The notes beneath the pieces were generated by a model, which was not told the DNA's origin, ran no database searches, and saw only the letters and a program-made list of their open reading frames with translations. Position numbers and translations under genes: made by a program. From a virus, in the IMG/VR virus record IMGVR_UViG_3300045988_066337: a DNA stretch of 53,192 nucleotides; one strand, written 5' to 3'. Position 1 is the stretch's first letter. The number at the start of each line of letters is the position of its first letter. Of this stretch, positions 312-53,192 are shown piece after piece.

Positions 312-917
312 TTATAAACTCGGTTTGACAGCATCCTTAATATAAGGATTGTTTAAATTTGAATCGTCTGTTCTAACTAACTTAGTACTCTTTAGATTAA
401 CACGTCCTAACAAACCCTCAAAGGATGATTGACGACCAGTCTGTGGATCAAATATCTTAACACCTTTTGAAGTATTTACTAAACTCACCACATGACCAAA
501 ATCTCTATCTTTCCAGGAAAAGGTCAAGACGGCTCTAGAATTTTCTCCCCACTCACCCATTTTTGATAAGATCCTACCTGTCGTACTTTTCACAGTCGGA
601 TTTCTCACGGTACGACCGTTAGGAGTTACGATATCGGTGACATTTTTACCAAAAAATTTAAGCCAATTATAGTTGCGTGGGTAGTCATCACCCCCAGAGT
701 TAGGTAACGCTTCCACATCGTAACCTTGCATTTTAGCCTCAAAAGCTACGACACATCTTTGGCAATTAGTTGTATAACCCGTCTCCCCATAATGGGGGTT
801 CGTCCAGGATACAGCATCGTCTAGGTCAGAAGGATTATTTTGATTATATTTTAACGTTTTCTTTCCTAACGCAGAAGAAACACTTTGTTTGCCACTTGCA
901 GAACCTCTACCGCCCAT
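312..917 (-). CDS. Hypothetical protein with a papain-fold toxin-like (Tox-PL1 / glutamine-deamidase-type) Cys...His signature
   Basis: 201-aa ORF overlapping the end of the upstream gene. A Gly/Ser linker MGGRGSASG is followed by TNCQRCVVAFEAKMQGYDVEA ... DFGHVVSL. From memory this resembles the toxin module usually fused to the C-terminus of MuF/SPP1-gp7 head proteins. Function unverified. Confidence 0.45.
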   Translation of the reverse strand: MGGRGSASGKQSVSSALGKKTLKYNQNNPSDLDDAVSWTNPHYGETGYTTNCQRCVVAFEAKMQGYDVEALPNSGGDDYPRNYNWLKFFGKNVTDIVTPNGRTVRNPTVKSTTGRILSKMGEWGENSRAVLTFSWKDRDFGHVVSLVNTSKGVKIFDPQTGRQSSFEGLLGRVNLKSTKLVRTDDSNLNNPYIKDAVKPSL

Positions 918-1614
918 CTTTATAATTCTCCTTTCTATAGTCTACAAATGTAATTATAGAAGAGTCGAATTGTTTTGTCAATAGTTCATATAAAGATTCT
1001 ACGGATCTTAATAAAATTTGTTTGGGTTCTAATTCTATTAGCATTCTTTCAAACCCTGTCAGGAATCTTGGCAATACTTCTTTTTGTCTACTAGAACCTA
1101 CTGCAGACACCATTAGTACAGAATCTTTGGGTAGCCCGCTAAAACAAAATTCAAAAGATTTCTCGTGACTCCAATTTACAGAAGGTATAACAGTCATACC
1201 ATTAATTTGACATAATCTAGCAAACCACAAATTTCTATAATGATTAAACCTCTGTAAAGGTTCAGGCATATCCCAGTAAAGACTGAAATCAGGCATTACC
1301 ACACCTTCGTATTCGGCTAATATGTCTATGTACTTCATTGGGTTATTCCATATACGATTAAACTGATAATCTTGAAGATAAAAGTGAATATATGCATTTT
1401 TATTTTTATTGGACATTGCATAATTAAAGGGTAAAAACGTAACACCTCTTCTGGGTAATTTAAAATCTTGGAGAGGTTCCAATATTGGGAACCCGTCTTC
1501 AGTAAACTGCATTGAATCTGGTGTTTTGTACCAATTCAATATATCCTGACCATTAAGCCATGCATTACTTTTCAAATAATCCTCCTTATACCGTGCCTGT
1601 AATAAAATATCCAA
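907..1614 (-). CDS. DUF4417-like protein
   Basis: 235-aa ORF (TTG start as in the ORF track; start uncertain). Motifs IHFYLQDYQFNRIW, MPDFSLYWDMP and NHYRNLWFARLCQ..G..VIPSVNW match what I recall as DUF4417 hallmarks. Confidence 0.45.
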   Translation of the reverse strand: MDILLQARYKEDYLKSNAWLNGQDILNWYKTPDSMQFTEDGFPILEPLQDFKLPRRGVTFLPFNYAMSNKNKNAYIHFYLQDYQFNRIWNNPMKYIDILAEYEGVVMPDFSLYWDMPEPLQRFNHYRNLWFARLCQINGMTVIPSVNWSHEKSFEFCFSGLPKDSVLMVSAVGSSRQKEVLPRFLTGFERMLIELEPKQILLRSVESLYELLTKQFDSSIITFVDYRKENYKDGR

Positions 1615-4361: not shown

Positions 4362-4733
4362 TCAATAAAGCTTTAAATAACTTGTCTTTGTACCCAGCTC
4401 TCTTTTACTGCACCCTTGTCCTGCAGGACAACCTCTACGGTGACCTGTATTTAAGATATACCCACAAGCCAGCGTGCCTGATAATAAAGTGGAATATTTA
4501 CACCTTGCGCATGTTTTCTTGTCGCAAATCGACGATTTGACACCTTCTCGAGGCATGCTCGTATCTGATGTGCCTTTCAATTCCGCATACCTTTCTCGAC
4601 TGTACTCTCTTTCTCTTTTTAGTACATACTGTCTTCGACATTCCGGACACCTTATCGTTCTATGACTCTTCCTGGTAAAGATCGTCCCACAGTCCTTGCA
4701 AGCCACTTCCGGCTCTTTTAATGCATACGCCAT
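4362..4733 (-). CDS. Cys-rich zinc-ribbon protein, hypothetical
   Basis: CKDCG...CPECRR plus CARCKY...C..GC motifs; AGGTGG RBS favours the internal ATG at 4733; GC-rich island. Confidence 0.55.
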   Translation of the reverse strand: MAYALKEPEVACKDCGTIFTRKSHRTIRCPECRRQYVLKREREYSRERYAELKGTSDTSMPREGVKSSICDKKTCARCKYSTLLSGTLACGYILNTGHRRGCPAGQGCSKRELGTKTSYLKLY

Positions 4734-4746
4734 TACGACCACCTGC

Positions 4747-5364
4747 CTAGTCCTCACGGTAATTAAAGCACTCTTTGCCTGCCGTTCCATTCACTGCAAA
4801 TGTAGGCGGTGCTGTGCAGATGCAGTCGTTGTTATAATAGCAATCTGTTTCAACGCAGCGGATCGTCATATCCCGAAAAACACTGCGTTCTGGCATTTCT
4901 GGGTTCGTAGTGATATGCTCATGCGTCCAGATCAGACACATGATGTTCCACACAAATGCCCTGTCATGACGTTCGTCATCATCGCCCCGCAACCATTTGA
5001 GATAGTGTCTGACCGCACTGTCTATGTAACTTGATTCAGGGATCCCTTTCTGCCAGTTGTTTTCTCCGTACTTTTTGGCACCCTCTTCAAAGTGTTTTGA
5101 AACTTCCAGCAACGCCGTAAATAAGTCAGGGAACCCATCGCTTTTCATAAAATTTGTCACAACAGCTCGCAGATAGCCAGCATAATGTGTTGTTTGGTAT
5201 TTGTAAATCCCCTCTATAACTGTTGACGCTCCGCCACAGCCTCCTTCCAGGAGAAGCTCCGCTACTACACCCAGCGGCATCAGATCGCATCTGCCTTTGC
5301 CTTCCTGAATGTCTCTTACCGCACCCGTTTCGTATTCTCTTCTGTTTCCGCTATCTTGTATCAT
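4747..5364 (-). CDS. MazG-like all-alpha dNTP pyrophosphohydrolase of the dATP/dGTP diphosphohydrolase (MazZ / DUF5664) type, with a Cys-rich C-terminal tail
   Basis: DSGNRREYETGAVRD..GKGRCDLMP, GAKKYGENNWQKG and RHYLKWLRGDDDERHD match the motifs I recall for this family. Confidence 0.6.
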   Translation of the reverse strand: MIQDSGNRREYETGAVRDIQEGKGRCDLMPLGVVAELLLEGGCGGASTVIEGIYKYQTTHYAGYLRAVVTNFMKSDGFPDLFTALLEVSKHFEEGAKKYGENNWQKGIPESSYIDSAVRHYLKWLRGDDDERHDRAFVWNIMCLIWTHEHITTNPEMPERSVFRDMTIRCVETDCYYNNDCICTAPPTFAVNGTAGKECFNYRED

Positions 5365-5368
5365 TTTA

Positions 5369-5458
5369 TTATCTCCTCTTAATACCAGTAATTACAATTA
5401 CTGTAAAGCATATTATTGCAACACAATATAAAACACAATCTATTTCTGTAATATTCAT
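5369..5458 (-). CDS. Small hydrophobic peptide (29 aa), hypothetical
   Basis: ATGA overlap with the upstream stop; translates MNITEIDCVLYCVAIICFTVIVITGIKRR; fills the only gap here. Confidence 0.3.
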   Translation of the reverse strand: MNITEIDCVLYCVAIICFTVIVITGIKRR

Positions 5459-5631
5459 TCGATTTCCTCCCCAGCCGCCCATTCGTCGTATGCCTCATTC
5501 AGCACGTTATACGCTTCGTCAGTACATACGATGATGTGATATTCTCCACCGCTCGCACTGACCATTCCCGCATTGCACTCTTTTAGCGCCCTGAGCATTT
5601 CCGCTATTAAACCTACTGTTGCACTCATCAT
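5455..5631 (-). CDS. Hypothetical protein
   Basis: AGGAGGTGG RBS and ATGA overlap with the upstream stop favour a start at 5631 (MMSATVG...). Confidence 0.5.
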   Translation of the reverse strand: MMSATVGLIAEMLRALKECNAGMVSASGGEYHIIVCTDEAYNVLNEAYDEWAAGEEIE

Positions 5632-6107
5632 TCCACCTCCTGAGACCAGTAAGTTCTCCTGCAGTCTGAACAACATCCTACCGGATAATTTTTGCAGTCA
5701 TCAAAATCCTTATCAATATATCTAGGGCAAATATCTATAACGCCTTGATCCATCATGGCATTTGGGTTTGCCTTTAAAAATTCGCCTTGTCGTGTTTTAT
5801 TTGCAACCCTTATAAACCTATCTGGATAATTTCTACGACACCCTAAACATGTAGATGTACCGTAATCGTGTATACAATGTTCGCAACTGCCTAAACCAGT
5901 ATTTAATTCATTATCAGCACACTTCAATAGCTGCTCCACTAAATTTACAGTGCAGTCAACTCCCTTACTATTAAATTTACAATTCTTGCATGCGTTCTCT
6001 GTACTACAGCTAACAAATTTGTCATCTACCAGTGCAGGAAGTTGCCTGTCTTTTTGTATAAATTCCAAAATCTGATTTTTCCACGTCTCAAAATTCATCA
6101 ATATCAC
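5628..6107 (-). CDS. Cys-rich protein (about 18 Cys in 159 aa), hypothetical
   Basis: Several CxxC and CxxxC pairs (CKNCK, CEHC, CLGC, CCSDC). Confidence 0.6.
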   Translation of the reverse strand: MILMNFETWKNQILEFIQKDRQLPALVDDKFVSCSTENACKNCKFNSKGVDCTVNLVEQLLKCADNELNTGLGSCEHCIHDYGTSTCLGCRRNYPDRFIRVANKTRQGEFLKANPNAMMDQGVIDICPRYIDKDFDDCKNYPVGCCSDCRRTYWSQEVE

Positions 6108-6138
6108 TCCTTATATCTTAAAAAATTTATCATAAACA

Positions 6139-6345
6139 TTACCTTTTATATGTTAAACTTACACCGTCTTCCATAAGTACAGAAATATGAACAGGATATC
6201 CTTTCCTGTTATCACCTAAAGAAACGAATTTCTTTCCTACGATTTTTACAGGTTTAACATGATTTTTTTCACATTCCATGCATTTATTTTTATCTTTATA
6301 AGTTGTACCACATGCTTCACACACAAATAATTTAGTCTCTTTCAC
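6139..6345 (-). CDS. Zinc-ribbon protein, hypothetical
   Basis: CEACG...CMEC; GGAGG-7 nt-GTG favours a start at 6345 (the ORF track extends to 6381). Confidence 0.5.
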   Translation of the reverse strand: MKETKLFVCEACGTTYKDKNKCMECEKNHVKPVKIVGKKFVSLGDNRKGYPVHISVLMEDGVSLTYKR

Positions 6346-6526
6346 TTTTAAACCTCCTACTATGTTTTTTCTTGTCATCAATTAATGTTGTAATACCTAA
6401 CCTATAAACATACAATGGGCAAGACTTTATAGGACAATTAATAACTTCTTGCTTATGCCCACAAGAACAGTCCAAACACTTTGCTTTCACCGCTTTAAAT
6501 AAAGGTGTGTCATCGTATGCACTCAT
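6332..6526 (-). CDS. Small Cys-rich protein, hypothetical
   Basis: KAKCLDCSCGHKQEVINCPIKSCPLYVYRLG, a motif I recall from small prophage proteins of unknown function. Confidence 0.55.
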   Translation of the reverse strand: MSAYDDTPLFKAVKAKCLDCSCGHKQEVINCPIKSCPLYVYRLGITTLIDDKKKHSRRFKSERD

Positions 6527-7320
6527 TATGTCACCTTCTTACAAATCGTTTTATAATTACAATATCTGCAAGTCTTAGTATTTTCGGTCTTTGGGGGTGC
6601 TATAAGTCTTTCTACATATCCCTCACACTCCATTATATATGAAACTAACCACTCCTTCATATCTTCTGTAACTTCAAACAGCGTGCATTCTAATGTGCAG
6701 AAATCCCTGTTTTCATATAGAACAAACACCTTATTAAGATCCAATGCAGTACAATAACAAATAACCTGATTATGATGTTCTTCTAAAGGTTGATTTTCCA
6801 CATTAGCATATTTAAATGAGGTAACGTTTTTCATCTCAAATAGATAATACTCATTTGTTGAAATACGTCTAATAATACCGTCACACCTGAAAGATAAATT
6901 TAATGTCGTGTCTATAAGATGTGTTTCAGCTCCTGCCGTACCTTTCACTTTTAGATTTTTACATTTTCCGAATTTCTGCTTATTCTCTACATATTTAGCA
7001 ACATCTACATATTCCCAGTCTGTACCTAATTCTTTAAGCTGTAAAAGAACCTCTTGTATAGCTTCATGTCTTCTTGTACCTGTATCCGACATGCCGATCA
7101 TACTATACTGAGAATCTGCTTTATCCGTATCAGCACCAACTCTTGTAAAATACATATTTCTCATACATTTTAAAGAACTTGGTTTATAATATCGGCTTGG
7201 TTTACGTCTATTACTAGAGTCAAGTCTCTCAATGGATGTCATTACATCCACGAGAAACTTTTTATTTGGTTCTAAATCTTTAGATCTATTATTTATAAGA
7301 TTTAATAATTTTCTTGTCAC
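6526..7320 (-). CDS. PD-(D/E)XK exonuclease, Cas4/AddB-like with a Cys cluster
   Basis: D..EMK core (CDGIIRR...LFEMKNV); one N-terminal Cys plus a C-terminal CRYCNYKTIC. Confidence 0.65.
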   Translation of the reverse strand: MTRKLLNLINNRSKDLEPNKKFLVDVMTSIERLDSSNRRKPSRYYKPSSLKCMRNMYFTRVGADTDKADSQYSMIGMSDTGTRRHEAIQEVLLQLKELGTDWEYVDVAKYVENKQKFGKCKNLKVKGTAGAETHLIDTTLNLSFRCDGIIRRISTNEYYLFEMKNVTSFKYANVENQPLEEHHNQVICYCTALDLNKVFVLYENRDFCTLECTLFEVTEDMKEWLVSYIMECEGYVERLIAPPKTENTKTCRYCNYKTICKKVT

Positions 7321-7364
7321 TATCTCACCTCTTCAATTTGTGTTTTTCTTTAACTTATGTATAT

Positions 7365-7393
7365 ATTATAACTTATTGTAACACATAAGTCAA
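7365..7393 (-). promoter_or_regulatory. SigA-type promoter, TTGACT-17-TATAAT with the conserved box in the spacer
   Basis: Reverse complement reads TTGACT TATGTGTTACAATAAGT TATAAT. Confidence 0.65.
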
Positions 7394-7403
7394 TAGTTTT
7401 TAC

Positions 7404-7432
7404 AAAAAAAAGAGGTGAATTTTTATCACCTC
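7404..7432 (-). terminator. Rho-independent terminator after dnaN
   Basis: GAGGTGA...TCACCTC hairpin plus a T8 run on the minus strand; near-identical to 89-119. Confidence 0.75.
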
Positions 7433-7447
7433 CTATAATAACATATA

Positions 7448-8518
7448 TTATTCATCGTCTTCTAATAAAGCGATTACCTGAACTACATTCCCAGTCTCTA
7501 GCTTCAGAGCATTATCATTACCGTACCACATTGTGACAGTATCCTCTGGACAAGCCTGTAACTGTTCTTTCATCATCACAATATCTACAAGGCAAGTGAA
7601 TCCTTTAAAGTTCTTGCTCTCAATATAATTGATTGTTTCGGTAGACGCGTCTTTTTTAGAATGAACAGTAATACCTGTTCTACCAAATGTAAAGTAAGCT
7701 CCATTCTTGTCAAATGGCGTGATAAATAAAGATAATCTATCTAACACATCCAACATTAACTCTTTAGGAATCTTACATACAGAATCAAATGCAATATCAA
7801 GATAAGCATTTATTTGATCAATAGGGTATTCTTCAATTCCAGAAAGCTGAGGTCCTCTAATTTCTACACCGTCTCCGCAAAATACAAGATCCTGCCCGGA
7901 CTTGCCAAACTCAATTTTTTCTGAACTATTTAATGTGAGTAACTGCATCATCTGTGGGGAAATAAGCATATCTTCCTGATCTTTAAACATCACAAATCTA
8001 TTAAATGTGATAACAATAGCATCACTAGTAACCACATTATCCCCACAATAGTAGCCCGTCAATGCAGGTTGCTCATACGTTTTAGCCAATGCTGCTCTGT
8101 TAATGTTATAAGCAGACATGATAGATGTCAACTGAACTTCTCCGATACTTTCAAAAGGTGTCTCATCTACTGGAAACTCTACCACACCTTCCTCGTCCAT
8201 CATAAGCGGCAACTTATAGGTACCATTACCTTTTACAACTAAATTTTCATCTTTTACAGATAAGTCAATCTCTGTACATGTTATCTTATTTATGAGTTTA
8301 CCAAATTTATCCGCTTCTACAGTTATATTAAAATCATCTCCAGAAACCTTGTCTATTGTAATGGTCAAGTAATTTGTCATATCAGTAGTATAAAATTTAA
8401 GGCTGCCTTCTTCTAACTTTATACCAATTAACTCAGTTAAGGGTATCAATTTATTGAACCCACAACCTTTAACAGATTTAGCGACTGCATTTTTTAATCT
8501 TTCACTTCCAACCTTCAT
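7448..8518 (-). CDS. dnaN: DNA polymerase III beta sliding clamp
   Basis: 356 aa, three-domain length, beta-clamp-like N-terminus (LKNAVAKSVKG...LIGIKLE). Confidence 0.65.
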   Translation of the reverse strand: MKVGSERLKNAVAKSVKGCGFNKLIPLTELIGIKLEEGSLKFYTTDMTNYLTITIDKVSGDDFNITVEADKFGKLINKITCTEIDLSVKDENLVVKGNGTYKLPLMMDEEGVVEFPVDETPFESIGEVQLTSIMSAYNINRAALAKTYEQPALTGYYCGDNVVTSDAIVITFNRFVMFKDQEDMLISPQMMQLLTLNSSEKIEFGKSGQDLVFCGDGVEIRGPQLSGIEEYPIDQINAYLDIAFDSVCKIPKELMLDVLDRLSLFITPFDKNGAYFTFGRTGITVHSKKDASTETINYIESKNFKGFTCLVDIVMMKEQLQACPEDTVTMWYGNDNALKLETGNVVQVIALLEDDE

Positions 8519-8528
8519 ATTTTCCTCC

Positions 8529-9101
8529 TCACTTTTGACCCATTAAAGAATAAGCTTCTTTTCTCAGCTCTACATTATCCAGAAATGCACCTCTTATAGT
8601 AGCTGTCTTAGTTTTAGCCCCACGGCTCTTAATTCCTCTAGATGTCATACAACTATGCTCGCCGTCCACCACCACAAGGACATCTTCAGAACCTGTAGCT
8701 AACTGAACAATTTCTGCGATATCAGAACCTATTCTTTCCTGAAGCTGTAATCTTTTTCCAACCATATCTGCGATTCGTGCAAATTTACTTAATCCTAAAA
8801 CCTTACCATCTGGTATATATGCAATTGAAACAGACATATTGTACATAAGAGCCAAATGATGTTCACAGTAGCTAAAAATAGGTATATCTTGAACAACTAC
8901 TAAATCATCATTATCTGTATCAAAACATTTACAAAACTTATTCGCAATCTCTGCATTGCTATAGTTCATCCCCTCAAATACTTCTACATACATTCTGGCG
9001 ACTCTATCTGGCGTATCTACTAATCCCGGTCTATCGGGATCATCTCCCAAAGCTACTAAGATTTCCTTGACCGCCTTCTTTATGCGCTCTTTATCTATCA
9101 T
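8529..9101 (-). CDS. folE: GTP cyclohydrolase I
   Basis: [27 protein letters not shown] motifs. Confidence 0.85.
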
Positions 9102-9102
9102 G

Positions 9103-9747
9103 TCATACTCCTCTCTTATTTGGATCCCATATAATTTTATGTAATTGCAGCTGAACTTTGCAATTATTTAATCCCTTAGAAATTATAAAATCCACAATTT
9201 TTTCTGGATTCATTTTTCCAAATACAGGGCTAAAATAAATTTGAGCCTTTGGGTTAAATTTCTTTATAATGTCATAAGCTCTATCAAGATCTTCCTGTGT
9301 GCCCACAACAAATTTCAAAACATCCCCAGAATCTAAAAAGAGAAAGTTATTTATGTTCATTGAGGATTCCATCCCGCTGGAGGGGCATTTATAATCCATT
9401 GTGAGGAAGCATCCCGCATTACAAGATAAATCATTAATTTCAAGAGAACCATTTGTCTCGATGTTTATCCGATAATTTCTTTTTAAAAGTTCAGAAATCA
9501 GACCTTTAAGATCCCCCTGTAATAAAGGCTCCCCTCCTGTGATAGTCACATTTTTACAATTCAAATCTTCTACACAATCAAGTATCTCCGGAATCGTTAA
9601 AAGTTCATAATCTCCCCCCTCACATCCGTATCTAGTATCACAATATGTGCAATTTAGATTACAACCGTATAAACGAATAAATACAGCGGGGAGTCCGGCA
9701 CGTCTACCTTCACCCTCAATACTTTTAAATATCTCTACAACTTTCAT
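9103..9747 (-). CDS. queE: 7-carboxy-7-deazaguanine synthase (radical SAM)
   Basis: [10 protein letters not shown]...[18 protein letters not shown] (CxxxCxxC). Confidence 0.85.
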
Positions 9748-9749
9748 AT

Positions 9750-10103
9750 CTAATCCTCCACATAGGTAGCAGTATTTCCTTCGCTTTCTTGTACTTCTAC
9801 TTTATAACACTTTCCAACTTCACAAATATCTGAAACTCTTTTACATATCCATCTTGCCATGTTCTCAGCAGTTGGGTTAAGAGGATACACAACATCATTT
9901 ATACAAGAATGATCTAGCTTGTCGTGTATTTCTTTCTTGATCTTTGTGAAATCCACAATCATTCCATATTTTGTAAGTTTAACAGATTTACAATGAACGG
10001 TAACTATCCAATTATGCCCATGTAGTTTCTCACATTCGCTGTCATAAGGGAGCTCTAAATGATGAGCCCCCGCAATTTCCATTCTTTTTGATACATAATA
10101 CAT
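9750..10103 (-). CDS. queD: 6-carboxy-5,6,7,8-tetrahydropterin synthase
   Basis: 117 aa; AHHL...HGHNW motifs; sits between queE and queC. Confidence 0.8.
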   Translation of the reverse strand: MYYVSKRMEIAGAHHLELPYDSECEKLHGHNWIVTVHCKSVKLTKYGMIVDFTKIKKEIHDKLDHSCINDVVYPLNPTAENMARWICKRVSDICEVGKCYKVEVQESEGNTATYVED

Positions 10104-10213
10104 TATACAAACCTCCTATAAATCAATAAAGCTAATAAACATGCAAATATTTTTGCACTAATCATAATCCAGTATAGAATTTTGTCGTTTCGACTTAAAA
10201 AATTATAATTCAT
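10103..10213 (-). CDS. Small hydrophobic peptide (36 aa), hypothetical
   Basis: GAGGA RBS; TAATG overlap with the queD start; translates MNYNFLSRNDKILYWIMISAKIFACLLALLIYRRFV. Confidence 0.3.
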   Translation of the reverse strand: MNYNFLSRNDKILYWIMISAKIFACLLALLIYRRFV

Positions 10214-10215
10214 GT

Positions 10216-10908
10216 CTATTCCTCATAAGAGATGGGATCCACACTTCCAGCTAATTCAAAAGCTTTTTTCCTATCTAAACAAGTGGCGCATTTACCACAA
10301 GCATATTCCCCACCTTCATAACAACTCCAAGTAAAGTCATAAGGGACCTTTAATTGTAAACCTATTTTTACAATATCAGATTTATGTAAATGTACAAAAG
10401 GACTCAATACAGTAATTCTACCATAAGTTCCAATATTTATAGCATTATTCATAGCATTCACAAACTCTGGAGAACAATCTGCATAGGCTTCACCCGCAGC
10501 ATCATCCGCATGAGCCCCATAATAAATGAGTACGTCCTCATCTGGAAATAAACTGTCTGCATAAGATGCCGCAATAGAAAGAAGCAGGCCGTTCCTAAAT
10601 GGTACATAAGTGGATACCCTTCCATTCTTTTCAATCTGTTTTGCATAAGACTCATGGGAGATTTCACCACCCCCCTTCACTAATGTACACACTGAACCTG
10701 CATATTTCATTATGTTGGAGATATCTTCTTCAATGTGTCGTACTCCGTAATACTCCGCAATCCTCCTAGCACATTCCAACTCTTTATCATGTTTCTGACC
10801 ATAATACAAAGAGGCGGTGATAACATTTTCTTCCCCATGTCGGTCAACAGCTAAAGCTACACACGTCGTAGAATCCACTCCACCAGAACTTAATACTAAC
10901 GCTTTCAT
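10216..10908 (-). CDS. queC: 7-cyano-7-deazaguanine (preQ0) synthase
   Basis: LSSGGVDSTT PP-loop; C-terminal CGKCATCLDRKKAF zinc motif. Confidence 0.85.
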   Translation of the reverse strand: MKALVLSSGGVDSTTCVALAVDRHGEENVITASLYYGQKHDKELECARRIAEYYGVRHIEEDISNIMKYAGSVCTLVKGGGEISHESYAKQIEKNGRVSTYVPFRNGLLLSIAASYADSLFPDEDVLIYYGAHADDAAGEAYADCSPEFVNAMNNAINIGTYGRITVLSPFVHLHKSDIVKIGLQLKVPYDFTWSCYEGGEYACGKCATCLDRKKAFELAGSVDPISYEE

Positions 10909-10916
10909 ATACCCTC

Positions 10917-11381
10917 CTAATAAATTACATTGTAAAATTTAACATAGCGATCATATAATTGTTTAGATCCGTTGATTGGAAGATGCTCCAATTCTAACGC
11001 CTCTGAATTAGGATTTTCAATCCAATCATAAATAAACTGATCTATAAAACCTATATTAGCCGCAGCGTATATATCTTCCGCAAAGTATACTTTCTTGATT
11101 CCAGCCCACATAATTGCGGATAAACACATCGGGCATGGATACCCTGTTGCGTATAACTCGCAACCGGATAAATCATACGTCCCTAAGAGTTTACAGGCTT
11201 TTCTGATCGCATTTATCTCCGCGTGCGCTGTAGGATCGTTATCCCTTAAGACGGTATTACTCTCAACTGATAAAACCTCTCCATCCCTGACAACTACAGC
11301 CCCGAAAGGACCTCCAAACCCCTGTTCCATTGTTACTTCCGCACGGGTCAGTGCAAGCTCCATATAATTCTCTTTGTTCAT
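10917..11381 (-). CDS. CDA-fold zinc deaminase of the guanine-deaminase (Bacillus GuaD) type
   Basis: GGPFGAVVVRDG, NDPTAHAEINAIRKACK, PCPMCLSAIMWAG and GFIDQFIY closely track my recollection of B. subtilis GuaD. Confidence 0.65.
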   Translation of the reverse strand: MNKENYMELALTRAEVTMEQGFGGPFGAVVVRDGEVLSVESNTVLRDNDPTAHAEINAIRKACKLLGTYDLSGCELYATGYPCPMCLSAIMWAGIKKVYFAEDIYAAANIGFIDQFIYDWIENPNSEALELEHLPINGSKQLYDRYVKFYNVIY

Positions 11382-11412
11382 AATTTTCCTCCTAACTTAT
11401 TTACTTTATTTT

Positions 11413-11441
11413 ATTGTAACACATAAAAAACAAATTGTCAA
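11413..11441 (-). promoter_or_regulatory. SigA-type promoter, TTGACA-17-TACAAT with TGT extended -10
   Basis: Reverse complement reads TTGACA ATTTGTTTTTTATGTGT TACAAT; abuts the dpdA stop codon. Confidence 0.6.
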
Positions 11442-12515
11442 CTAAAATAAACCTTTTCGCGTAACTGTTTTTGATGTGTTCTGAATAGATTTCGCCTTAT
11501 CCAACATATATTTAGCATTGTACAAGATGCGACAATCTCTATCTGAAGCCAGCTCCTCTAAAGTAAACCCGAAATTAGATACTGAATCTTGGATAGTCTT
11601 CTGTGCCTCTTCGGGCAATCTACTATAATGATCTTTGTTATTACGCTGTTGAGTACTTATCGAAATTGTACCATAATCAGACATAATATTACCCATAGCG
11701 CCGATCATTATCCAGCTAGTGCTGTCAGCCGAATAAATAGGATATTTCCGAAGTAACTCAAAATCTGTCATTCCAAAAGCGTGAACCTTGACATCGGGGT
11801 TGTTAGATCTGGAGATCAACCGAAAACACTTTTCTAAAAATTGATCTCTCATCCACTTAGGTTTTCCCACCATTCCTCCGAGTGCAATATATGGAATAGG
11901 TTTCCCATCAGAACTCACCCACTCTAAAGCATTTATTAGATATTCAAATGGTTCCCCGACATGAAAAGTATATAACAAACTATCCGGATTCTTTAATCTC
12001 TTTCTCATAAATAGATAATTTTCCCACGTTTTTTTAGCCGCAAATTTTACCTCTTCCATAGTAGCGCCATGAACCCTATCTCCTGGAATGAAGTCGACTT
12101 GACCACATAAATAAATATCATCTGAATGCAAATTAAGCCAATTAATATATTCTTTTACATCAATTTTAACTCCCTTTGTCCAAGCACTAAAAGCTCCAGA
12201 ATCAATAAATAACTTAGAAGGTTTTATGTAGTCTTTTAATTTTTCGACATAAGTCTTATCCAAATAAGAGAAGAGAGAATCAGCTTTCAAGTCATGTAAA
12301 ACAAATTCCTCCATACCGGCTAAGAATAAATCCAAATTAGAACCCCCCAATCTTTGCAAAGCTTGCATATATATGTGCTTATCTTTTTTCCAATAAGAAA
12401 GTGTATCTACAAATTTTCTCTGATAATCATAAGAAAGAAGACGATTAGACAAGATACCAATATCCAACTTCACAGGTTTTGCAAAAACATACTCTCCAGC
12501 TAAGTATAAATCCAT
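11442..12515 (-). CDS. dpdA: DpdA-like DNA guanine transglycosylase (TGT superfamily)
   Basis: LFIDSGAFSAW, ALGGMVG and SADSTSW motifs as I recall for phage DpdA; adjacent to the preQ0 pathway genes. Confidence 0.6.
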   Translation of the reverse strand: MDLYLAGEYVFAKPVKLDIGILSNRLLSYDYQRKFVDTLSYWKKDKHIYMQALQRLGGSNLDLFLAGMEEFVLHDLKADSLFSYLDKTYVEKLKDYIKPSKLFIDSGAFSAWTKGVKIDVKEYINWLNLHSDDIYLCGQVDFIPGDRVHGATMEEVKFAAKKTWENYLFMRKRLKNPDSLLYTFHVGEPFEYLINALEWVSSDGKPIPYIALGGMVGKPKWMRDQFLEKCFRLISRSNNPDVKVHAFGMTDFELLRKYPIYSADSTSWIMIGAMGNIMSDYGTISISTQQRNNKDHYSRLPEEAQKTIQDSVSNFGFTLEELASDRDCRILYNAKYMLDKAKSIQNTSKTVTRKGLF

Positions 12516-12575
12516 TTCAATCCTCTCTCTCTGTTAATTTGTATCCATTACAGGAACCAGCTAAGTATAAATCCA

Positions 12576-14819
12576 TTAAAAATCCAACGCCTCTCCATAC
12601 CAATTTCGGGTAACTTCACAGTCACATCTAAAAGGTAATTTAATCAATTTAGATGGGGCTTGTTTCATAAGCTCTGCTAATCGCTCTTTAGCTTCTACAA
12701 CATTTTCCTCAGGACACTCCCCAATTACTTCATCATGCACCTGTAATAACAAATGAAAATGCAAATCTTTTAACATCTCATCATTATTTATATGTATCAT
12801 GGCTAATTTAACCATGTCAGCAGCACTGCCTTGTACTCGAGCATTAACGCACTGTCTTTCTGCTTGTGCAATAAATCCTGTATTGTCTTTAATTTTAATG
12901 CCAGAATTGTAAGCTTGCTGTATTATATCATTCTTACGTTTCCACCCAAATGCCTTGTCAAGCTTCTGGGTATACTGCTTTTTCACAGACTCAGGCACAC
13001 TAGTATCTTGTTCAGTGCCAAATGCCAATGGATCAAAATTCAAATTCGTAAATTCATATCTATCTAATTGCATATCTACAAGATGTCTTCGTCTTCCCCA
13101 AGCTGTTGTAACATATCCTTTTTCTTTTGCCATAGTTTGAGACTCATCAATAAATTTAGCCAGCTGCGGAAATGCTTTCAGAACTGAATCATAAATCTTC
13201 TGAGCTTCCTTAGTGGACACACCTAGTTGCTCACCAATAGATGGAATTTGTCTACCATAAAGAATCCCTAATACAATGCTTTTAGCTTGACTTCGTCTTT
13301 CTTTGCCTGCAGGATTTACAGTGCCATCTGGTCTAAACTCTTTGCATTCATCATAGGGCTTATGAAACGCTAAAGAAGCAATTGTGGCATAAATATCTTT
13401 ACCATGTATAAATGCGTCCTGCATCTTCTTATCATTTGACAAGTGGGCAGTAACCATTGGTTCCTGTTGACTATAGTCGGCTCCTACAAGCACATATCCA
13501 TCTTGAGCTTTAAACATTTGTCTAATCTCTTTATTGTGAGACGGTATATTTTGTAAATTAGGGTCACTACTAGAAAATCTGCCTGTCTTCGCACCATATT
13601 GATTATAATTAGCGTGAACACGACCATCCTCTAGTACCACCTTAGGCATCTTGTCCACATATGTGCTTAGTAATTTATCTACATTTCTTATGTCAAGAAT
13701 AGCATTGCACAGATCTTTATGTTTACCCTCTGCAAAATGCTTTAAAATATTCTCCCCTGTTCCTCTAGGGGACTTCTTATCAGGACTTTCCAATTTCAAA
13801 ATATCATAAAACAATATGGCAAGCTGTATCGGGCTAGTTAAAGAAACAGGTGTAGATAATTTACAATTAGGATGTGACAACTTATAATTTTCTATCTGAT
13901 CGTCATACATTGAAATTACCTTTTGAGCAGTCTGTTCTCGTTCCTCTTTTATACTATGATATTTTTCGTGTAAATTTTTACATACCTCGAAGTCTAAACA
14001 AACGCCTCTGTCTTCCATATCCGCTACAACCGTGATCAATGGCATTTCTATAGTGTTGAACACTTCAAAAGTGCCACCATTTCGTCTGTTTAAAATAGAC
14101 TTTTGATATTCGTACAATTCAAATGTTTTTAGAGCATCCCCCGCAGCGTATAAATAAGCTACAGAAATTGGAACCTGATCAAATGTAAAACCTCTAAACA
14201 GTGTGTCAAATTTTAATGATTCTGTGTCTGTTGAATCACAATATTTTAGATGTAAATCTTTCAACGCGTGTGATTCATTTTCATCTATACAATATGCCGC
14301 TAACATTGTGTCCCAATAAGGTTTGAAATCAATTCCAAGTGTTTTCCGGCATACTCTTATATCATACTTAGCATTATGAAAAATCCATCTAATATCATTA
14401 TGAAATTCTTTCATAATCTTTGATACTGTCTGTTCATCCAACTGGTCTTTAGTTCTTGTACCGGTTATATATGATTTATGATTAATTGGAATATATGCCG
14501 CTTTCTGTCCTGGTGTGTAAATACATCCGCCTACTATATCAACTAATAATGGATTTAATCCTGTTGTCTCTGTGTCTAATGCCCCCTCTCCAACTTGCTT
14601 CATTTCCTTCATGTACTCATATAATTGATCGGGTTCTCTAATAAGAATATAATCATCTTTATGATGTGCTAATTTCTGACTAGCAATAGCAACTATAGAT
14701 TGTATTTGAGCGGCCAGATTATTTCCGCCGCCCCTAATACTTGTCCTTGTTGTTACTGTTTTAGATTTTTTGATTATATTCTTATCATCGCTTTTTGGTC
14801 TCGCAAATGATAAAGCCAT
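12576..14819 (-). CDS. polA: Family A DNA polymerase with a 3'-5' exonuclease domain
   Basis: Exo motif ALDTETTGL; motif A GADYSQQE; motif B RRSQAKSIVLGILYG; motif C QVHDE. Confidence 0.9.
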   Translation of the reverse strand: MALSFARPKSDDKNIIKKSKTVTTRTSIRGGGNNLAAQIQSIVAIASQKLAHHKDDYILIREPDQLYEYMKEMKQVGEGALDTETTGLNPLLVDIVGGCIYTPGQKAAYIPINHKSYITGTRTKDQLDEQTVSKIMKEFHNDIRWIFHNAKYDIRVCRKTLGIDFKPYWDTMLAAYCIDENESHALKDLHLKYCDSTDTESLKFDTLFRGFTFDQVPISVAYLYAAGDALKTFELYEYQKSILNRRNGGTFEVFNTIEMPLITVVADMEDRGVCLDFEVCKNLHEKYHSIKEEREQTAQKVISMYDDQIENYKLSHPNCKLSTPVSLTSPIQLAILFYDILKLESPDKKSPRGTGENILKHFAEGKHKDLCNAILDIRNVDKLLSTYVDKMPKVVLEDGRVHANYNQYGAKTGRFSSSDPNLQNIPSHNKEIRQMFKAQDGYVLVGADYSQQEPMVTAHLSNDKKMQDAFIHGKDIYATIASLAFHKPYDECKEFRPDGTVNPAGKERRSQAKSIVLGILYGRQIPSIGEQLGVSTKEAQKIYDSVLKAFPQLAKFIDESQTMAKEKGYVTTAWGRRRHLVDMQLDRYEFTNLNFDPLAFGTEQDTSVPESVKKQYTQKLDKAFGWKRKNDIIQQAYNSGIKIKDNTGFIAQAERQCVNARVQGSAADMVKLAMIHINNDEMLKDLHFHLLLQVHDEVIGECPEENVVEAKERLAELMKQAPSKLIKLPFRCDCEVTRNWYGEALDF

Positions 14820-14830
14820 ATAATCCTCCT

Positions 14831-15025
14831 TTATTTTTTAATCATTTCTCCGGTGCCATGTCCTAACTTATTAAGATGCATTGGAGTAATGCTTAATCTA
14901 TGACATAAAAGATTTAAAACACTACAACATTCACTGTCAAAAATATCACTACCTTTTATGTTGTAAATTTTTGCAATTTCAGTAGCAACTTTCTTTTTAG
15001 ATATAAAGCCTATATTCTTTCTCAT
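14831..15025 (-). CDS. Hypothetical protein
   Basis: 64-aa ORF in the operon, tight spacing. Confidence 0.5.
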   Translation of the reverse strand: MRKNIGFISKKKVATEIAKIYNIKGSDIFDSECCSVLNLLCHRLSITPMHLNKLGHGTGEMIKK

Positions 15026-15026
15026 A

Positions 15027-15671
15027 TTACATACCTGCCCTTCTACTACCTCTTCTGTGAGAAACGGATTCTGCAGAACGTCTTCTTACAGGCTCTTCTT
15101 CAGTTTTAGATCCTGTTTCTGGAAATTCCCCATTATCCAAATAGTACTGCATTTCATCTGGAGATTTATCTAAGATAAAAGATCCTATAAATTCTGGTCT
15201 TTCAATCTCTGACACATCCACAGGATCCACATCAGGCATAGGGAAAATCTCATACTGCGTCTTCTTATCTCCTTTTGCACCTCGTCTCTCAATTTCAAAA
15301 ACCATTTCAGACAAATTTGGATACCTATTAAACAGTGCTTCAATCTTCTTTCTAAATGTTTTGCCTCTTTCCCAAATTTTAACCTTGCCATCTGCATGAT
15401 CATACATAGAAAGAATCATGACTGGTTTAACCTGTAAACCTGCGGCACAAAATGGACAATCATCAATTGGACTATCATAATCTCTTTTGCAGTCCACATA
15501 TCTTTCATTATCACCTACTTCTACACGGTGACATGCGTATGTATCGAGCTCATTATAATTATTATACAAAAACTGAACTCTTGCTACATCTCCATCGTTC
15601 TGTAGCTTCAACCATTCCGAGCTATTCTCATTACCATATCTGTCCATGTCATTTGGATTTATTCTTCCCAT
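15027..15671 (-). CDS. Putative ssDNA-binding protein (gp32-like, Zn-containing)
   Basis: WLKLQNDGDVARVQFL...H..CPFC pattern and position in the replication module; weak call. Confidence 0.4.
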   Translation of the reverse strand: MGRINPNDMDRYGNENSSEWLKLQNDGDVARVQFLYNNYNELDTYACHRVEVGDNERYVDCKRDYDSPIDDCPFCAAGLQVKPVMILSMYDHADGKVKIWERGKTFRKKIEALFNRYPNLSEMVFEIERRGAKGDKKTQYEIFPMPDVDPVDVSEIERPEFIGSFILDKSPDEMQYYLDNGEFPETGSKTEEEPVRRRSAESVSHRRGSRRAGM

Positions 15672-45934: not shown

Positions 45935-46732
45935 TTAGAACAAACTCCTTTCTATTATATCCTCGCCTCTAAGATCTTCCATCCAATTTTGTGGGATACT
46001 GTCAATTCCATATATTAATGCTGCACAAGCTCCAGTTAATGCTGCTATTGTATCCGTGTCCCCTCCTAGTTTAACTGCCTGCATTACAGCTAATTTATAA
46101 GAGTTGGTATGATATAAACACCACAACACACTATTCAACGTATCTACTACATAACCAGTAGATTTAATATTATCTACATGTTGATTCACTATATGTGAAC
46201 CATAATCATAAATTATGTTTTTTGCGTTATCAGGCCTTGCGCATAAGTCACGAACCATGCGTAAATATCGTTTACAAGCATAAATACATAATGGATGTGC
46301 ATGAGTTATACTAGAAATTGTTCCTGTATGGAACAAGCCATTTCGTATAAACGCTAATGGCAGTATTCTCATTAAGGACCCATTACCACAGCTATGCTCT
46401 GAACGTAGTCCGGCTCCTTTTTTTAGTGCTTGTAATGTTGTTGTACCAACATCAAACACTCTATTATTAATATAATATTTACCTTCTATGCAGTCTTTCA
46501 AATTGTTTAACACAGACTTGCGTCTGATTTTTCCGCCATCCTTTCTAATAGCATCACATGTGGCTAGCAATAAGGCAGTGTCATCCGACCATGTTCCTTT
46601 TGGTTGTGCCCATATGCCACCATCCGTCATATCCTCCTCTACATACACGCCTCTGTGGCAAAATTCATAAGGAACACCAAATGCGTCCCCCACTGCAAAA
46701 CCATAAACAGCTGTTTTTAATTTATCATTCAT
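45935..46732 (-). CDS. ADP-ribosylglycohydrolase (ARH/DraG family)
   Basis: VYGFAVGDAFGVPYEF, GTWSDDTALLLAT, GNGSLMRILP, LGGDTDTIAALTGA; AAAGAGG RBS favours the ATG at 46732. Confidence 0.8.
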   Translation of the reverse strand: MNDKLKTAVYGFAVGDAFGVPYEFCHRGVYVEEDMTDGGIWAQPKGTWSDDTALLLATCDAIRKDGGKIRRKSVLNNLKDCIEGKYYINNRVFDVGTTTLQALKKGAGLRSEHSCGNGSLMRILPLAFIRNGLFHTGTISSITHAHPLCIYACKRYLRMVRDLCARPDNAKNIIYDYGSHIVNQHVDNIKSTGYVVDTLNSVLWCLYHTNSYKLAVMQAVKLGGDTDTIAALTGACAALIYGIDSIPQNWMEDLRGEDIIERSLF

Positions 46733-46952
46733 ATAAGTACCTCTTTCCAACAGCACATTCCTCTTCAAACTCTGCGATCCTTTTCTCTTCCATCGCTGCG
46801 CGTCCAATCTCCACGATCATCTTCTTAGCACCAGCTTCTCCCAGCTTGTCTTTTGATATCACATAAATGTTCATCAGGATCAATGCGGTATCCGATAGGA
46901 TCTCAGCCAGATCGCCGGCTATTTTTGTGTCCCCGTTTTCTGTTTTAATCAT
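46725..46952 (-). CDS. Hypothetical protein
   Basis: GGAGGAG RBS before the ATG at 46952 (MIKTENGD...); GC-richer island. Confidence 0.5.
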   Translation of the reverse strand: MIKTENGDTKIAGDLAEILSDTALILMNIYVISKDKLGEAGAKKMIVEIGRAAMEEKRIAEFEEECAVGKRYLYE

Positions 46953-52828: not shown

Positions 52829-53102
52829 TTTCAGTTATCCTTTCGACTTGATTTTGTGTAAAAAATGCAGAATCCTTTAAAAAATATCTGCCATTATCTA
52901 TAATTTCTGTGGTCCCGTCTTCCTTTTCCACCTCAACCTTTTTACTGGATTTTTTCCATATAGATATCTTATGTTGGGATTTTTCTCCATGTTTAACCTT
53001 GAATCCTAAATTTTTCCACTGACTATAAGTATGTAACACTACTAAATCGGGATCTAAACCATGTAGATTCATATATGTAAGTATAATTTCATTATTAGTC
53101 AC
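52809..53102 (-). CDS. ArdC-N-like ssDNA-binding domain protein
   Basis: HTYSQWKNLGFKVKHGEKSQHKISIW resembles the ArdC N-terminal motif. AGGAGG-8 nt-GTG favours a start at 53102 (ORF track gives 53111); the start lies inside the terminal repeat. Confidence 0.4.
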   Translation of the reverse strand: MTNNEIILTYMNLHGLDPDLVVLHTYSQWKNLGFKVKHGEKSQHKISIWKKSSKKVEVEKEDGTTEIIDNGRYFLKDSAFFTQNQVERITENEKHIQ

Positions 53103-53192
53103 GTGAAACACCTCCTATCATTTTTTCTTTAACTTGTGTATATATTATAACTTATTGTAACACATAAATCAAGAGTTTTACAAAAAAAAAAG
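53094..53192. repeat. Second copy of the 99-bp terminal repeat (contains the promoter copy at 53144-53172)
   Basis: Identical to 1-99. Confidence 0.95.

Follow-up and report, generated by a model that had tools for sequence, protein, structure and literature searches.

Why should a phage gene cluster for 7-deazaguanine DNA modification carry a guanine deaminase? The question is raised by a viral genome assembly of 53,192 nucleotides (IMG/VR record IMGVR_UViG_3300045988_066337; the whole of this stretch is called the window below), in which genes for the synthesis of preQ0 (7-cyano-7-deazaguanine) and for a DpdA-like DNA transglycosylase occupy positions 8529 to 12515. A gene for a small deaminase (10917-11381) lies between queC and dpdA. 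An earlier note on the window, made from the letters alone, had likened this enzyme to the guanine deaminase GuaD of Bacillus subtilis and had proposed either that it destroys the guanine released by base exchange, pulling the DpdA reaction forward, or that it acts on a 7-deazaguanine to yield a new DNA base. All the open reading frames (ORFs) of the cluster were found where that note had placed them, on the minus strand. The cluster is a further DpdA1/preQ0 phage system; the new part is the recurrent pairing with GuaD, which is common in uncultured phages. We give a probability of about 0.55 to the proposal that the phage GuaD turns DpdA-released guanine into xanthine, and would in this way rid DpdA of a competing substrate, preQ0 being spared.

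The embedded deaminase resembles B. subtilis GuaD

The deaminase gene (10917-11381, minus strand) codes for a 154-residue protein of the cytidine-deaminase (CDA) fold (PF00383, 8e-26), annotated here as a GuaD-type guanine deaminase. A search of PDB sequences with this protein ranked B. subtilis GuaD first (1tiy/1wkq, 7.6e-38, 133 bits), before the plant guanosine deaminase GSDA (99 bits), TadA (1.6e-22, at most 83 bits), cytosine deaminase (30 bits) and T4 dCMP deaminase (1.8e-5, 28 bits). A profile of 20 family members aligned to residues 1-154 of the 156 residues of GuaD (2e-55), and scored 190 bits with GuaD versus 160 with GSDA. The AlphaFold model of the monomer (predicted local distance difference test, pLDDT, 88) had Arabidopsis GSDA (AtGSDA; template-modelling score, TM, 0.86) and GuaD as its best structural matches. 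The TM to GuaD was lower, with a root-mean-square deviation of about 17 Å, because GuaD is domain-swapped. Identity in the structural alignments was 43% to GuaD versus 36% to GSDA. In the GF(x)D(x)FIY segment the protein matches GuaD in length, and GSDA has one residue less.

When the initiator Met is counted, as in all deaminase numbering used here, residues F26, N42, H53, E55, C83, C86, F112 and D114 carry the same numbers as in GuaD, and the terminal tyrosine (Y154) is shared. The zinc and catalytic motifs H53-A-E55 and P82-C83-P-M-C86 were invariant in alignments A2 and A4. All eight residues and Y154 were invariant in A4, in phage and chromosomal sequences alike; in A2, N42 was invariant and D114 at least 90% conserved. 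The C-terminus of the deaminase reads ...NVIY, and 20/20 viral homologues as well as all the chromosomal homologues examined also end in tyrosine. Chromosomal GuaD orthologues, found on Firmicutes-type contigs, are 58-60% identical to the phage deaminase. In guanine deaminases of the CDA fold, a second acidic residue acts as proton shuttle (GuaD D114, NE0047 E143), an asparagine reads O6 (N42 and N66, respectively) and changes to the guanine scaffold are barely tolerated (PMC9081823). In AtGSDA, the terminal tyrosine (Tyr185) hydrogen-bonds the purine N7 and caps the active site (PMC9739398). For B. subtilis GuaD itself, specific roles of Tyr156 and Asp114 are reported to have been described by Liaw et al. 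2004.

Overall, sequence scores, family profile and predicted fold all favour GuaD over a dCMP deaminase or TadA, as had been claimed at first reading. The four motifs quoted at that time are all in the translation. GuaD, and not a dCMP or tRNA deaminase, came first in a proper search, and comparison of the pocket with that of GuaD, which had been recommended, yielded a fold match by AlphaFold together with invariant pocket residues. The embedded 154-residue enzyme is predicted, from sequence and model, to be a guanine deaminase of the B. subtilis GuaD type.

The deaminase recurs beside 7-deazaguanine genes

A survey of DpdA-encoding phages for co-occurrence had been advised in the earlier note. 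Viral loci were collected with a DpdA alignment; 80 were found, 64 of them with at least 6 kb of downstream sequence. The pairing recurs: the deaminase was present in 29 of these 64 loci, and in 15 of 41 clusters after dereplication of DpdA at 95% identity. The gene does not keep one position: it may directly follow dpdA, come after folE, separate queC from queD, or lie some way downstream (about 4 kb), past the clamp and exonuclease genes. The pairing was also observed on phage-like contigs binned into metagenome-assembled genomes of Clostridia, Bacilli and Tissierellaceae (GTDB). Among cultured phages (INPHARED), no close GuaD homologue was found, the best match being 42% identical.

The 11 closest viral homologues of the deaminase (at least 52% identity) all had 7-deazaguanine genes, that is DpdA, que or a YhhQ-type transporter, within 6 kb. 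DpdA itself was present in six of the 11. Most or all que genes accompany it in four of these; the fifth is truncated by the contig end, and the sixth has a YhhQ-type importer but lacks que genes. Of the others, one (L004) combines que genes and QueF with an amidase and a YhhQ-type transporter, and four had a YhhQ-type (Vut_1) transporter. The companions of the deaminase thus differ widely. There is no tailoring gene in the window, ArcS2/DUF5591 in L028, Gat-QueC on jumbo-phage contigs of about 200 kb (L009, L017), QueF with an amidase in L004, and QueC with an importer in L053 and L054. In L043, which is on the same contig as L008, the deaminase stands with DpdA and a YhhQ-type importer, without que genes. 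Predicted end products and supply routes vary in this way. Wherever DpdA is in view, which it is not in L004, base exchange is the constant element, rather than any single step of biosynthesis.

The sequences of the transglycosylases were then compared. DpdAs accompanied by the deaminase (30) and those without it (35) have the same 50 conserved columns, including DSGAF, D141, H185, HAFGMT and SADS. No alignment column separated the two groups among these 65 sequences, and DpdAs at least 80% identical to one another are found at loci of either kind. No co-variation links the two enzymes, and the deaminase is therefore taken not to change what DpdA inserts. In a rough neighbour-joining tree, several well-separated groups of phage deaminases were interspersed with chromosomal GuaDs; the deep branches are star-like, and single and multiple acquisition are not separable in it.

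Several observations were made on other genes of these loci. Mutual exclusion of deaminase and QueF was considered, the four of 80 DpdA loci with QueF all being without deaminase, and was rejected, as L004 has both. A DUF6884 protein (PF21818, 4e-35) is encoded just upstream of queC in sibling phages without deaminase (L031, 9732-10148; L034, 9642-10058). It is a recurrent member of 7-deazaguanine clusters (L031, L034, L121, L122); it was rejected as a substitute for the deaminase, L121 and L122 carrying both, along with a YhhQ-type transporter. Beside the YhhQ-type transporter, a short-chain dehydrogenase is repeatedly encoded (L005, 5345-5992; L007, L010, L060, L062, L077, L101, L105, L124); L005, L007 and L010 are deaminase loci, and the gene is also seen at DpdA loci that have no que genes. 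Its product may be a tailoring or salvage enzyme that has escaped recognition. In L006, an amidase-signature enzyme (4385-5890; PF01425, 2.5e-84) that has a homologue in L004 adjoins the transporter and the deaminase; a 7-deazaguanine side chain (amide or nitrile) might be its target. Finally, the 411-residue queE ORF of L004 (7639-8874) consists of a homing endonuclease in its N-terminal half (phrog_314) and of QueE in its C-terminal half, as if an endonuclease gene had been inserted at, or fused to, queE.

The cluster is predicted to make preQ0 and insert it into DNA

Downstream of the deaminase, four minus-strand genes were assigned to the preQ0 pathway. The product of queC (10216-10908, 230 residues) is a predicted preQ0 synthase without Gat fusion (PF06508, 4.5e-56; TIGR00364, 165 bits against a cutoff of 150). 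That of queD (9750-10103, 117 residues) is a predicted 6-carboxytetrahydropterin synthase (PF01242, 5e-29, 101 bits; TIGR03367, 85.7 bits against a cutoff of 89.25). The gene queE (9103-9747, 214 residues) would encode a radical-SAM 7-carboxy-7-deazaguanine (CDG) synthase of the Clostridial type (TIGR03963, 2.5e-83, 279 bits against a cutoff of 260), with a CxxxCxxC motif, and folE (8529-9101, 190 residues) a GTP cyclohydrolase I (PF01227, 1e-61; NF006826, 2.3e-70, 236 bits against a cutoff of 162). Three of the four enzymes are thus above the curated NCBIfam cutoffs, and QueD is 3.5 bits below its own. QueD and the decarboxylase DpdL are told apart by the signatures CxxxHGH and LxxxHRH, respectively (PMC10516641). 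The sequence CEKLHGH fits the former and not the latter, and the gene at 9750-10103 is therefore read as queD. With all four enzymes matched by family models and their catalytic motifs intact, FolE, QueD, QueE and QueC are predicted to form a complete GTP-to-preQ0 pathway, in keeping with what had been proposed from the letters.

The transglycosylase gene dpdA (11442-12515, minus strand) encodes 357 residues and matches phrog_887 (5e-48). Pfam did not detect this protein, and the NCBIfam DpdA model gave a partial match (1e-4, residues 209-274, covering D264). By BLASTP, the protein is 33% identical to DpdA of phage 9g over 257 residues (E = 3e-33), and its H245 (VKVHAFG) aligns with His196 of the 9g enzyme (IKVHGFG). 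This conserved histidine marks DpdA1 and is absent from DpdA2 (PMC6884629). The homology with 9g and the His196 equivalent therefore argue for a DpdA1-type enzyme. A profile search against PDB sequences, where Salmonella DpdA or a tRNA-guanine transglycosylase (TGT) could have been met, gave chance matches only; fold search was used instead. The AlphaFold model (pLDDT 77, low in the N-terminal 60 residues) had TGTs as its best Foldseek matches (probability 1.0, TM about 0.5). The earlier assignment as DpdA-like is in this way borne out by the 9g homology and by the TGT fold. The motifs DSGAF (D105, F109), D141, H185 and SADS (D264) are kept across 65 relatives. Judged by motif spacing and the partial NCBIfam match, and not by direct alignment, D105, F109, D141, H185 and D264 are candidate equivalents of D95, F99, D130, H181 and D256 of bacterial (Salmonella) DpdA, where they comprise three invariant active-site aspartates together with a Phe and a His. 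Among cultured phages, the closest enzymes (37-41% identity) are those of Streptococcus phages Dp-1 and MS1 and of Bacillus phage Flasso.

The first 60 residues or so of DpdA (12336-12515, minus strand), where model confidence is low, form an N-terminal extension missing in Dp-1, MS1 and Flasso. This extension repeats the motif of the first strand (DLYLAGE ... LDLFLAGME). Related DpdAs have N-terminal extensions of varied length, and reach up to about 490 residues.

We also searched for tailoring genes. Six-frame tblastn over the whole window found no homologue of QueF, ArcS2, Gat, DUF6884 or YhhQ; with Gat-QueC of L009 as the query, only the QueC half matched. No Pfam match to QueF, DUF5591, GATase or DUF3109 (DpdM) was obtained in the 49 ORFs scanned (40 of these being further non-structural ones), a scan in which DpdN and small ORFs were not specifically searched. 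The lack of QueF, Gat-QueC and an ArcS-like gene, noticed earlier, is thus corroborated by two methods. No tailoring enzyme of the kind that marks dPreQ1, dG+, dADG, dDG, mdPreQ1 or fdPreQ1 systems having been detected, dPreQ0 is the default prediction, and the cluster is best described as a putative dPreQ0-type DNA-modification system, with DpdA inserting preQ0.

A possible role in clearing released guanine

The following sequence of events is proposed. FolE, QueD, QueE and QueC would make preQ0 from GTP. The DpdA1-type transglycosylase would swap guanines of the phage DNA for preQ0, setting free guanine loose. This guanine would compete with preQ0 for the covalent DpdA-DNA intermediate, leading to futile G-for-G exchange. 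By converting the released guanine, together with other free guanine of the infected cell, to xanthine, the deaminase would remove the competitor. Xanthine would not be put back into DNA, as the 2-amino group read by the conserved Asp/His pair of DpdA is gone; a 2-oxo base should be rejected by the DpdA pocket (PMC10164549). In the deaminase, the N7-reading C-terminal tyrosine would cap a tight pocket in which guanine is destroyed while 7-substituted 7-deazaguanines are spared. The substrate would then be guanine and the benefit a more complete modification.

Bacterial DpdA catalyses [14C]guanine exchange into DNA, and free guanine is therefore a competing substrate. Guanine replacement amounts to 0.1-30% for DpdA1 and to 100% for DpdA3 (PMC10516641). 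The genome has about 18,800 G:C pairs, and by simple arithmetic replacement of up to 30% would release thousands of guanines per genome copy. Of the two hypotheses first put forward for the deaminase, removal of released guanine is the one favoured by the comparative evidence.

The deaminase was enriched in clusters with an encoded que pathway (14/29 versus 1/12), which fits a higher exchange flux in those phages; the associated value of Fisher's test (p = 0.03) ignores phylogeny. Several points weigh against the proposal. The gene is missing from more than half of the related DpdA clusters and is, because of this, dispensable. No DpdA was found within 6 kb of the deaminase in L004-L007 and L010, using the DpdA hidden Markov model and PHROGs; for these loci, where the deaminase is beside a YhhQ-type transporter, the link with DpdA is assumed. 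The association with importer and que genes would be just as compatible with a substrate among the 7-deazaguanine or pterin intermediates. The host HGPRT or a host GuaD could do the same job. The deaminase model is a monomer and cannot show the domain-swapped pocket.

If the proposal is right, the phage GuaD would be the first accessory factor proposed to deal with the by-product of post-replicative base exchange. A dedicated guanine scavenger would also bear on what sets the level of 7-deazaguanine replacement, giving a testable handle on modification efficiency. GuaD would become an extra component to search for when hypermodified phage genomes are predicted in gut, rumen and digester viromes, and might be of use in engineering high-level dPreQ0 DNA.

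Other possible roles of the deaminase

The deaminase could be a general purine-pool gene without mechanistic tie to DpdA, placed in the replication and nucleotide module by synteny only. Guanine from degraded host nucleic acids would be converted to xanthine, then to XMP and GMP by salvage, or guanine/GTP-dependent host regulation would be damped. The enzyme does look like an ordinary GuaD orthologue. In the L074-L091 group its gene and dpdA are about 4 kb apart, with the clamp and exonuclease genes in between and other replication genes around it, and more than half of the related DpdA phages do without it. We nevertheless consider this role unlikely: all 11 closest viral homologues adjoin 7-deazaguanine genes, cultured phages in INPHARED have no homologue closer than 42%, and the deaminase is enriched in que loci and stays within the que/dpdA block through several rearrangements.

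A second alternative is a (deoxy)guanosine or guanine-nucleotide deaminase like plant GSDA, which would reshape the pool, for instance by lowering the dG supply. AtGSDA gave the best structural match (TM 0.86) and came second by sequence, and the C-terminal tyrosine is common to both enzymes. However, GuaD is favoured over GSDA both by the family profile (190 versus 160 bits) and by identity in structural alignment (43% versus 36%), the GF(x)D(x)FIY segment is of GuaD length, and the closest homologues are bacterial chromosomal genes. In addition, GSDA occurs almost only in plants, and GSDA and guanine deaminase do not act on each other's substrates (PMC9739398). A GSDA-like activity is accordingly rated a little below the purine-pool role, as rather improbable.

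The enzyme could also deaminate a 7-deazaguanine base or intermediate (preQ0, CDG, preQ1 or the pterin CPH4), giving a 7-deazaxanthine-type compound that would serve as a new DNA base, in regulation or in detoxification. All these intermediates share the 2-amino-4-oxo ring edge of guanine, and the linkage to que genes and to YhhQ-type preQ0/preQ1 importers is tight, including at loci with no DpdA in view. On the other side, the N7-reading terminal tyrosine and the whole pocket are invariant across phage and chromosomal GuaDs. DpdA does not co-vary, its Asp/His base-reading motifs being unchanged, and its pocket should reject a 2-oxo base (PMC10164549). The deaminase coexists with ArcS2, Gat-QueC and QueF, all of which need intact preQ0, and deamination of a precursor would waste a costly pathway. 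We thus regard an action on 7-deazaguanines as quite improbable. Its most far-reaching form, in which the recruited GuaD turns free preQ0, free CDG or the base already in DNA into a 7-cyano- or 7-carboxy-7-deazaxanthine-type base, is given slightly less credit still; if true, it would add a hitherto undescribed class of DNA modification. The second of the hypotheses first put forward, that of a deaminated 7-deaza base, is disfavoured by the unchanged pocket and terminal tyrosine, by the DpdA comparison and by the coexistence with preQ0-needing enzymes.

A TadA-like tRNA A34 deaminase or a dCMP deaminase, which annotation matches to Pfam dCMP_cyt_deam_1 and MafB19, NCBIfam TadA and PHROG dCMP deaminase families might suggest, is very improbable and is excluded on scores (TadA model, 69 bits against a cutoff of 150; GuaD, 133 bits versus at most 83 for TadA structures), the protein also having the GuaD-specific D114, extended C-terminal tail and terminal tyrosine.

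Comparison with known systems

The clearing of free guanine by a phage-encoded GuaD is the role that we prefer among these; no report of the pairing was found in the literature searched. The reference surveys of phage 7-deazaguanine systems mention neither deaminase nor xanthine, and no mention of a guanine deaminase in phage Dpd/Que clusters was found in these surveys, in the supplements of the 2019 paper or in the full-text literature searched. The view that no guanine deaminase had been assigned to such clusters is in line with this result.

The window deaminase resembles B. subtilis GuaD/YknA (1WKQ, 1TIY) in length (154 versus 156 residues), end-to-end alignment, HAE and PCPMC motifs and C-terminal tyrosine. 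The settings differ: the B. subtilis enzyme belongs to nitrogen-regulated purine catabolism, whereas the window copy is phage-encoded within a DNA-modification cluster. GuaD is a domain-swapped dimer, while the window deaminase is described here from its sequence and a monomer model. Arabidopsis GSDA (7DBF and others) has the same fold, an N7-reading C-terminal tyrosine cap and the best monomer superposition, but is a plant enzyme with a nucleoside substrate, lower sequence similarity and one residue less in the GFDD segment.

As for the cluster, the closest known counterparts are those of Dp-1, MS1 and Flasso, which likewise have QueC, QueD, QueE, FolE, DpdA, DnaN and a Cas4/RecB-like exonuclease within the replication block. 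They differ in that they lack a deaminase and have a YhhQ-type transporter or else QueF or QueF-L, dPreQ1 being the base carried by Dp-1. The window has its own gene order, PolA-DpdA-deaminase-QueC and so on, and no tailoring gene. Enterobacteria phage 9g, the DpdA1 founder with dG+ DNA, and the CAjan-type dPreQ0 phages are further close systems. In 9g the clamp gene also adjoins dpdA, with folE, queD and Gat-queC alongside; unlike in the window, dG+ is made by way of Gat-QueC. The first 50 kb of the 56.7-kb record of 9g, cluster included, carry no annotated deaminase.

Canonical competitors are also cleared in other phages: T4 dCTPase gp56, and DatZ and MazZ of Z-genome phages, remove canonical deoxynucleoside triphosphates (dNTPs) before replication. 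The logic proposed here would be similar, a canonical competitor being destroyed so that the non-canonical base wins. The difference is that those enzymes act on dNTPs before replication, whereas the window enzyme is of an unrelated family and would act on the free base from post-replicative exchange.

Transcription signals and genome context

The sequence of the window is a circular assembly, positions 1-99 and 53094-53192 forming an exact terminal overlap of 99 bp; it is therefore taken as a complete, circularly assembled genome. It has 53,093 unique bases, with a G+C content of 35.5%, and every substantial ORF is on the minus strand. No tRNA gene was found in the window. Pfam matches identified a large terminase, a siphovirus tail protein, RecA, a primase, a DnaB-type helicase, an SNF2 helicase, clamp-loader subunits, ThyX and a family A DNA polymerase. 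The genome is that of a Dp-1-like siphophage of about 53.1 kb, described here as a gut-type phage. Its DpdA sequence recurs unchanged on six or more further metagenome contigs of 50-200 kb, one of them 53,121 bp long.

The family A DNA polymerase gene (12576-14819, minus strand; PF00476, 2.8e-92, and PF01612) is directly upstream of dpdA, and the order PolA-DpdA is kept in most of the 80 related loci. On the other side of the cluster, folE is followed by a DnaN-like phage sliding clamp gene (7448-8518, minus strand; phrog_947, 9e-30; N-terminal domain PF00712). Adjacency of a clamp gene to dpdA or que genes is shared by almost all the related loci and by Dp-1/MS1, Flasso and 9g. A Cas4/RecB-like exonuclease gene (6526-7320, minus strand; phrog_1706, 3.6e-37) comes downstream of the clamp and is the conserved end of the module in related loci.

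The earlier note had described a promoter-defined unit that begins with the deaminase gene and ends with the clamp. A promoter-like site of the extended -10 kind (11413-11441, minus strand; TTGACA, 17 nt, TG-n-TACAAT; consensus match 11/12) is indeed present in the 60 bp that separate dpdA from the deaminase gene and is followed by an AGGAGG ribosome-binding site. Its score is joint-highest for the minus strand within 6000-15500; the total count of promoter-like sites does not exceed that of a shuffled control. Downstream of the clamp gene, the consensus scan gave a terminator-like hairpin with a 9-bp stem followed by TTTTTT (7410-7434, minus strand). The two signals, which are consensus matches, fit the limits given for the unit, and co-transcription from the site at 11441-11413 is plausible on this basis. 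The only sizeable gap within the que block is the AT-rich queC-queD gap of 112 bp (10104-10215), where only weak promoter-like sites were seen. A riboswitch in this gap or elsewhere was considered and rejected, there being no Rfam match at gathering thresholds over the whole window.

Other genes of the window deserve mention. A 205-residue protein (4747-5364, minus strand) has the N-terminal domain of dATP/dGTP diphosphohydrolases (PF18909, 5e-18), enzymes of the MazZ type that Z-genome phages carry; no PurZ-like gene was noticed. In a phage that replaces G, a dGTP-hydrolysing MazZ-like enzyme may be relevant to guanine-nucleotide handling; its co-occurrence with the deaminase was uninformative, the gene lying mostly outside the retrieved flanks. 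An ADP-ribosylglycohydrolase (45935-46807, minus strand; PF03747, 5e-50) may be a counter-defence enzyme reversing ADP-ribosylation. Finally, at 312-917 and 907-1614 (minus strand), a papain-fold glutamine deamidase toxin-like domain (PF15644, 2e-14) adjoins a DUF4417 protein (2e-46).

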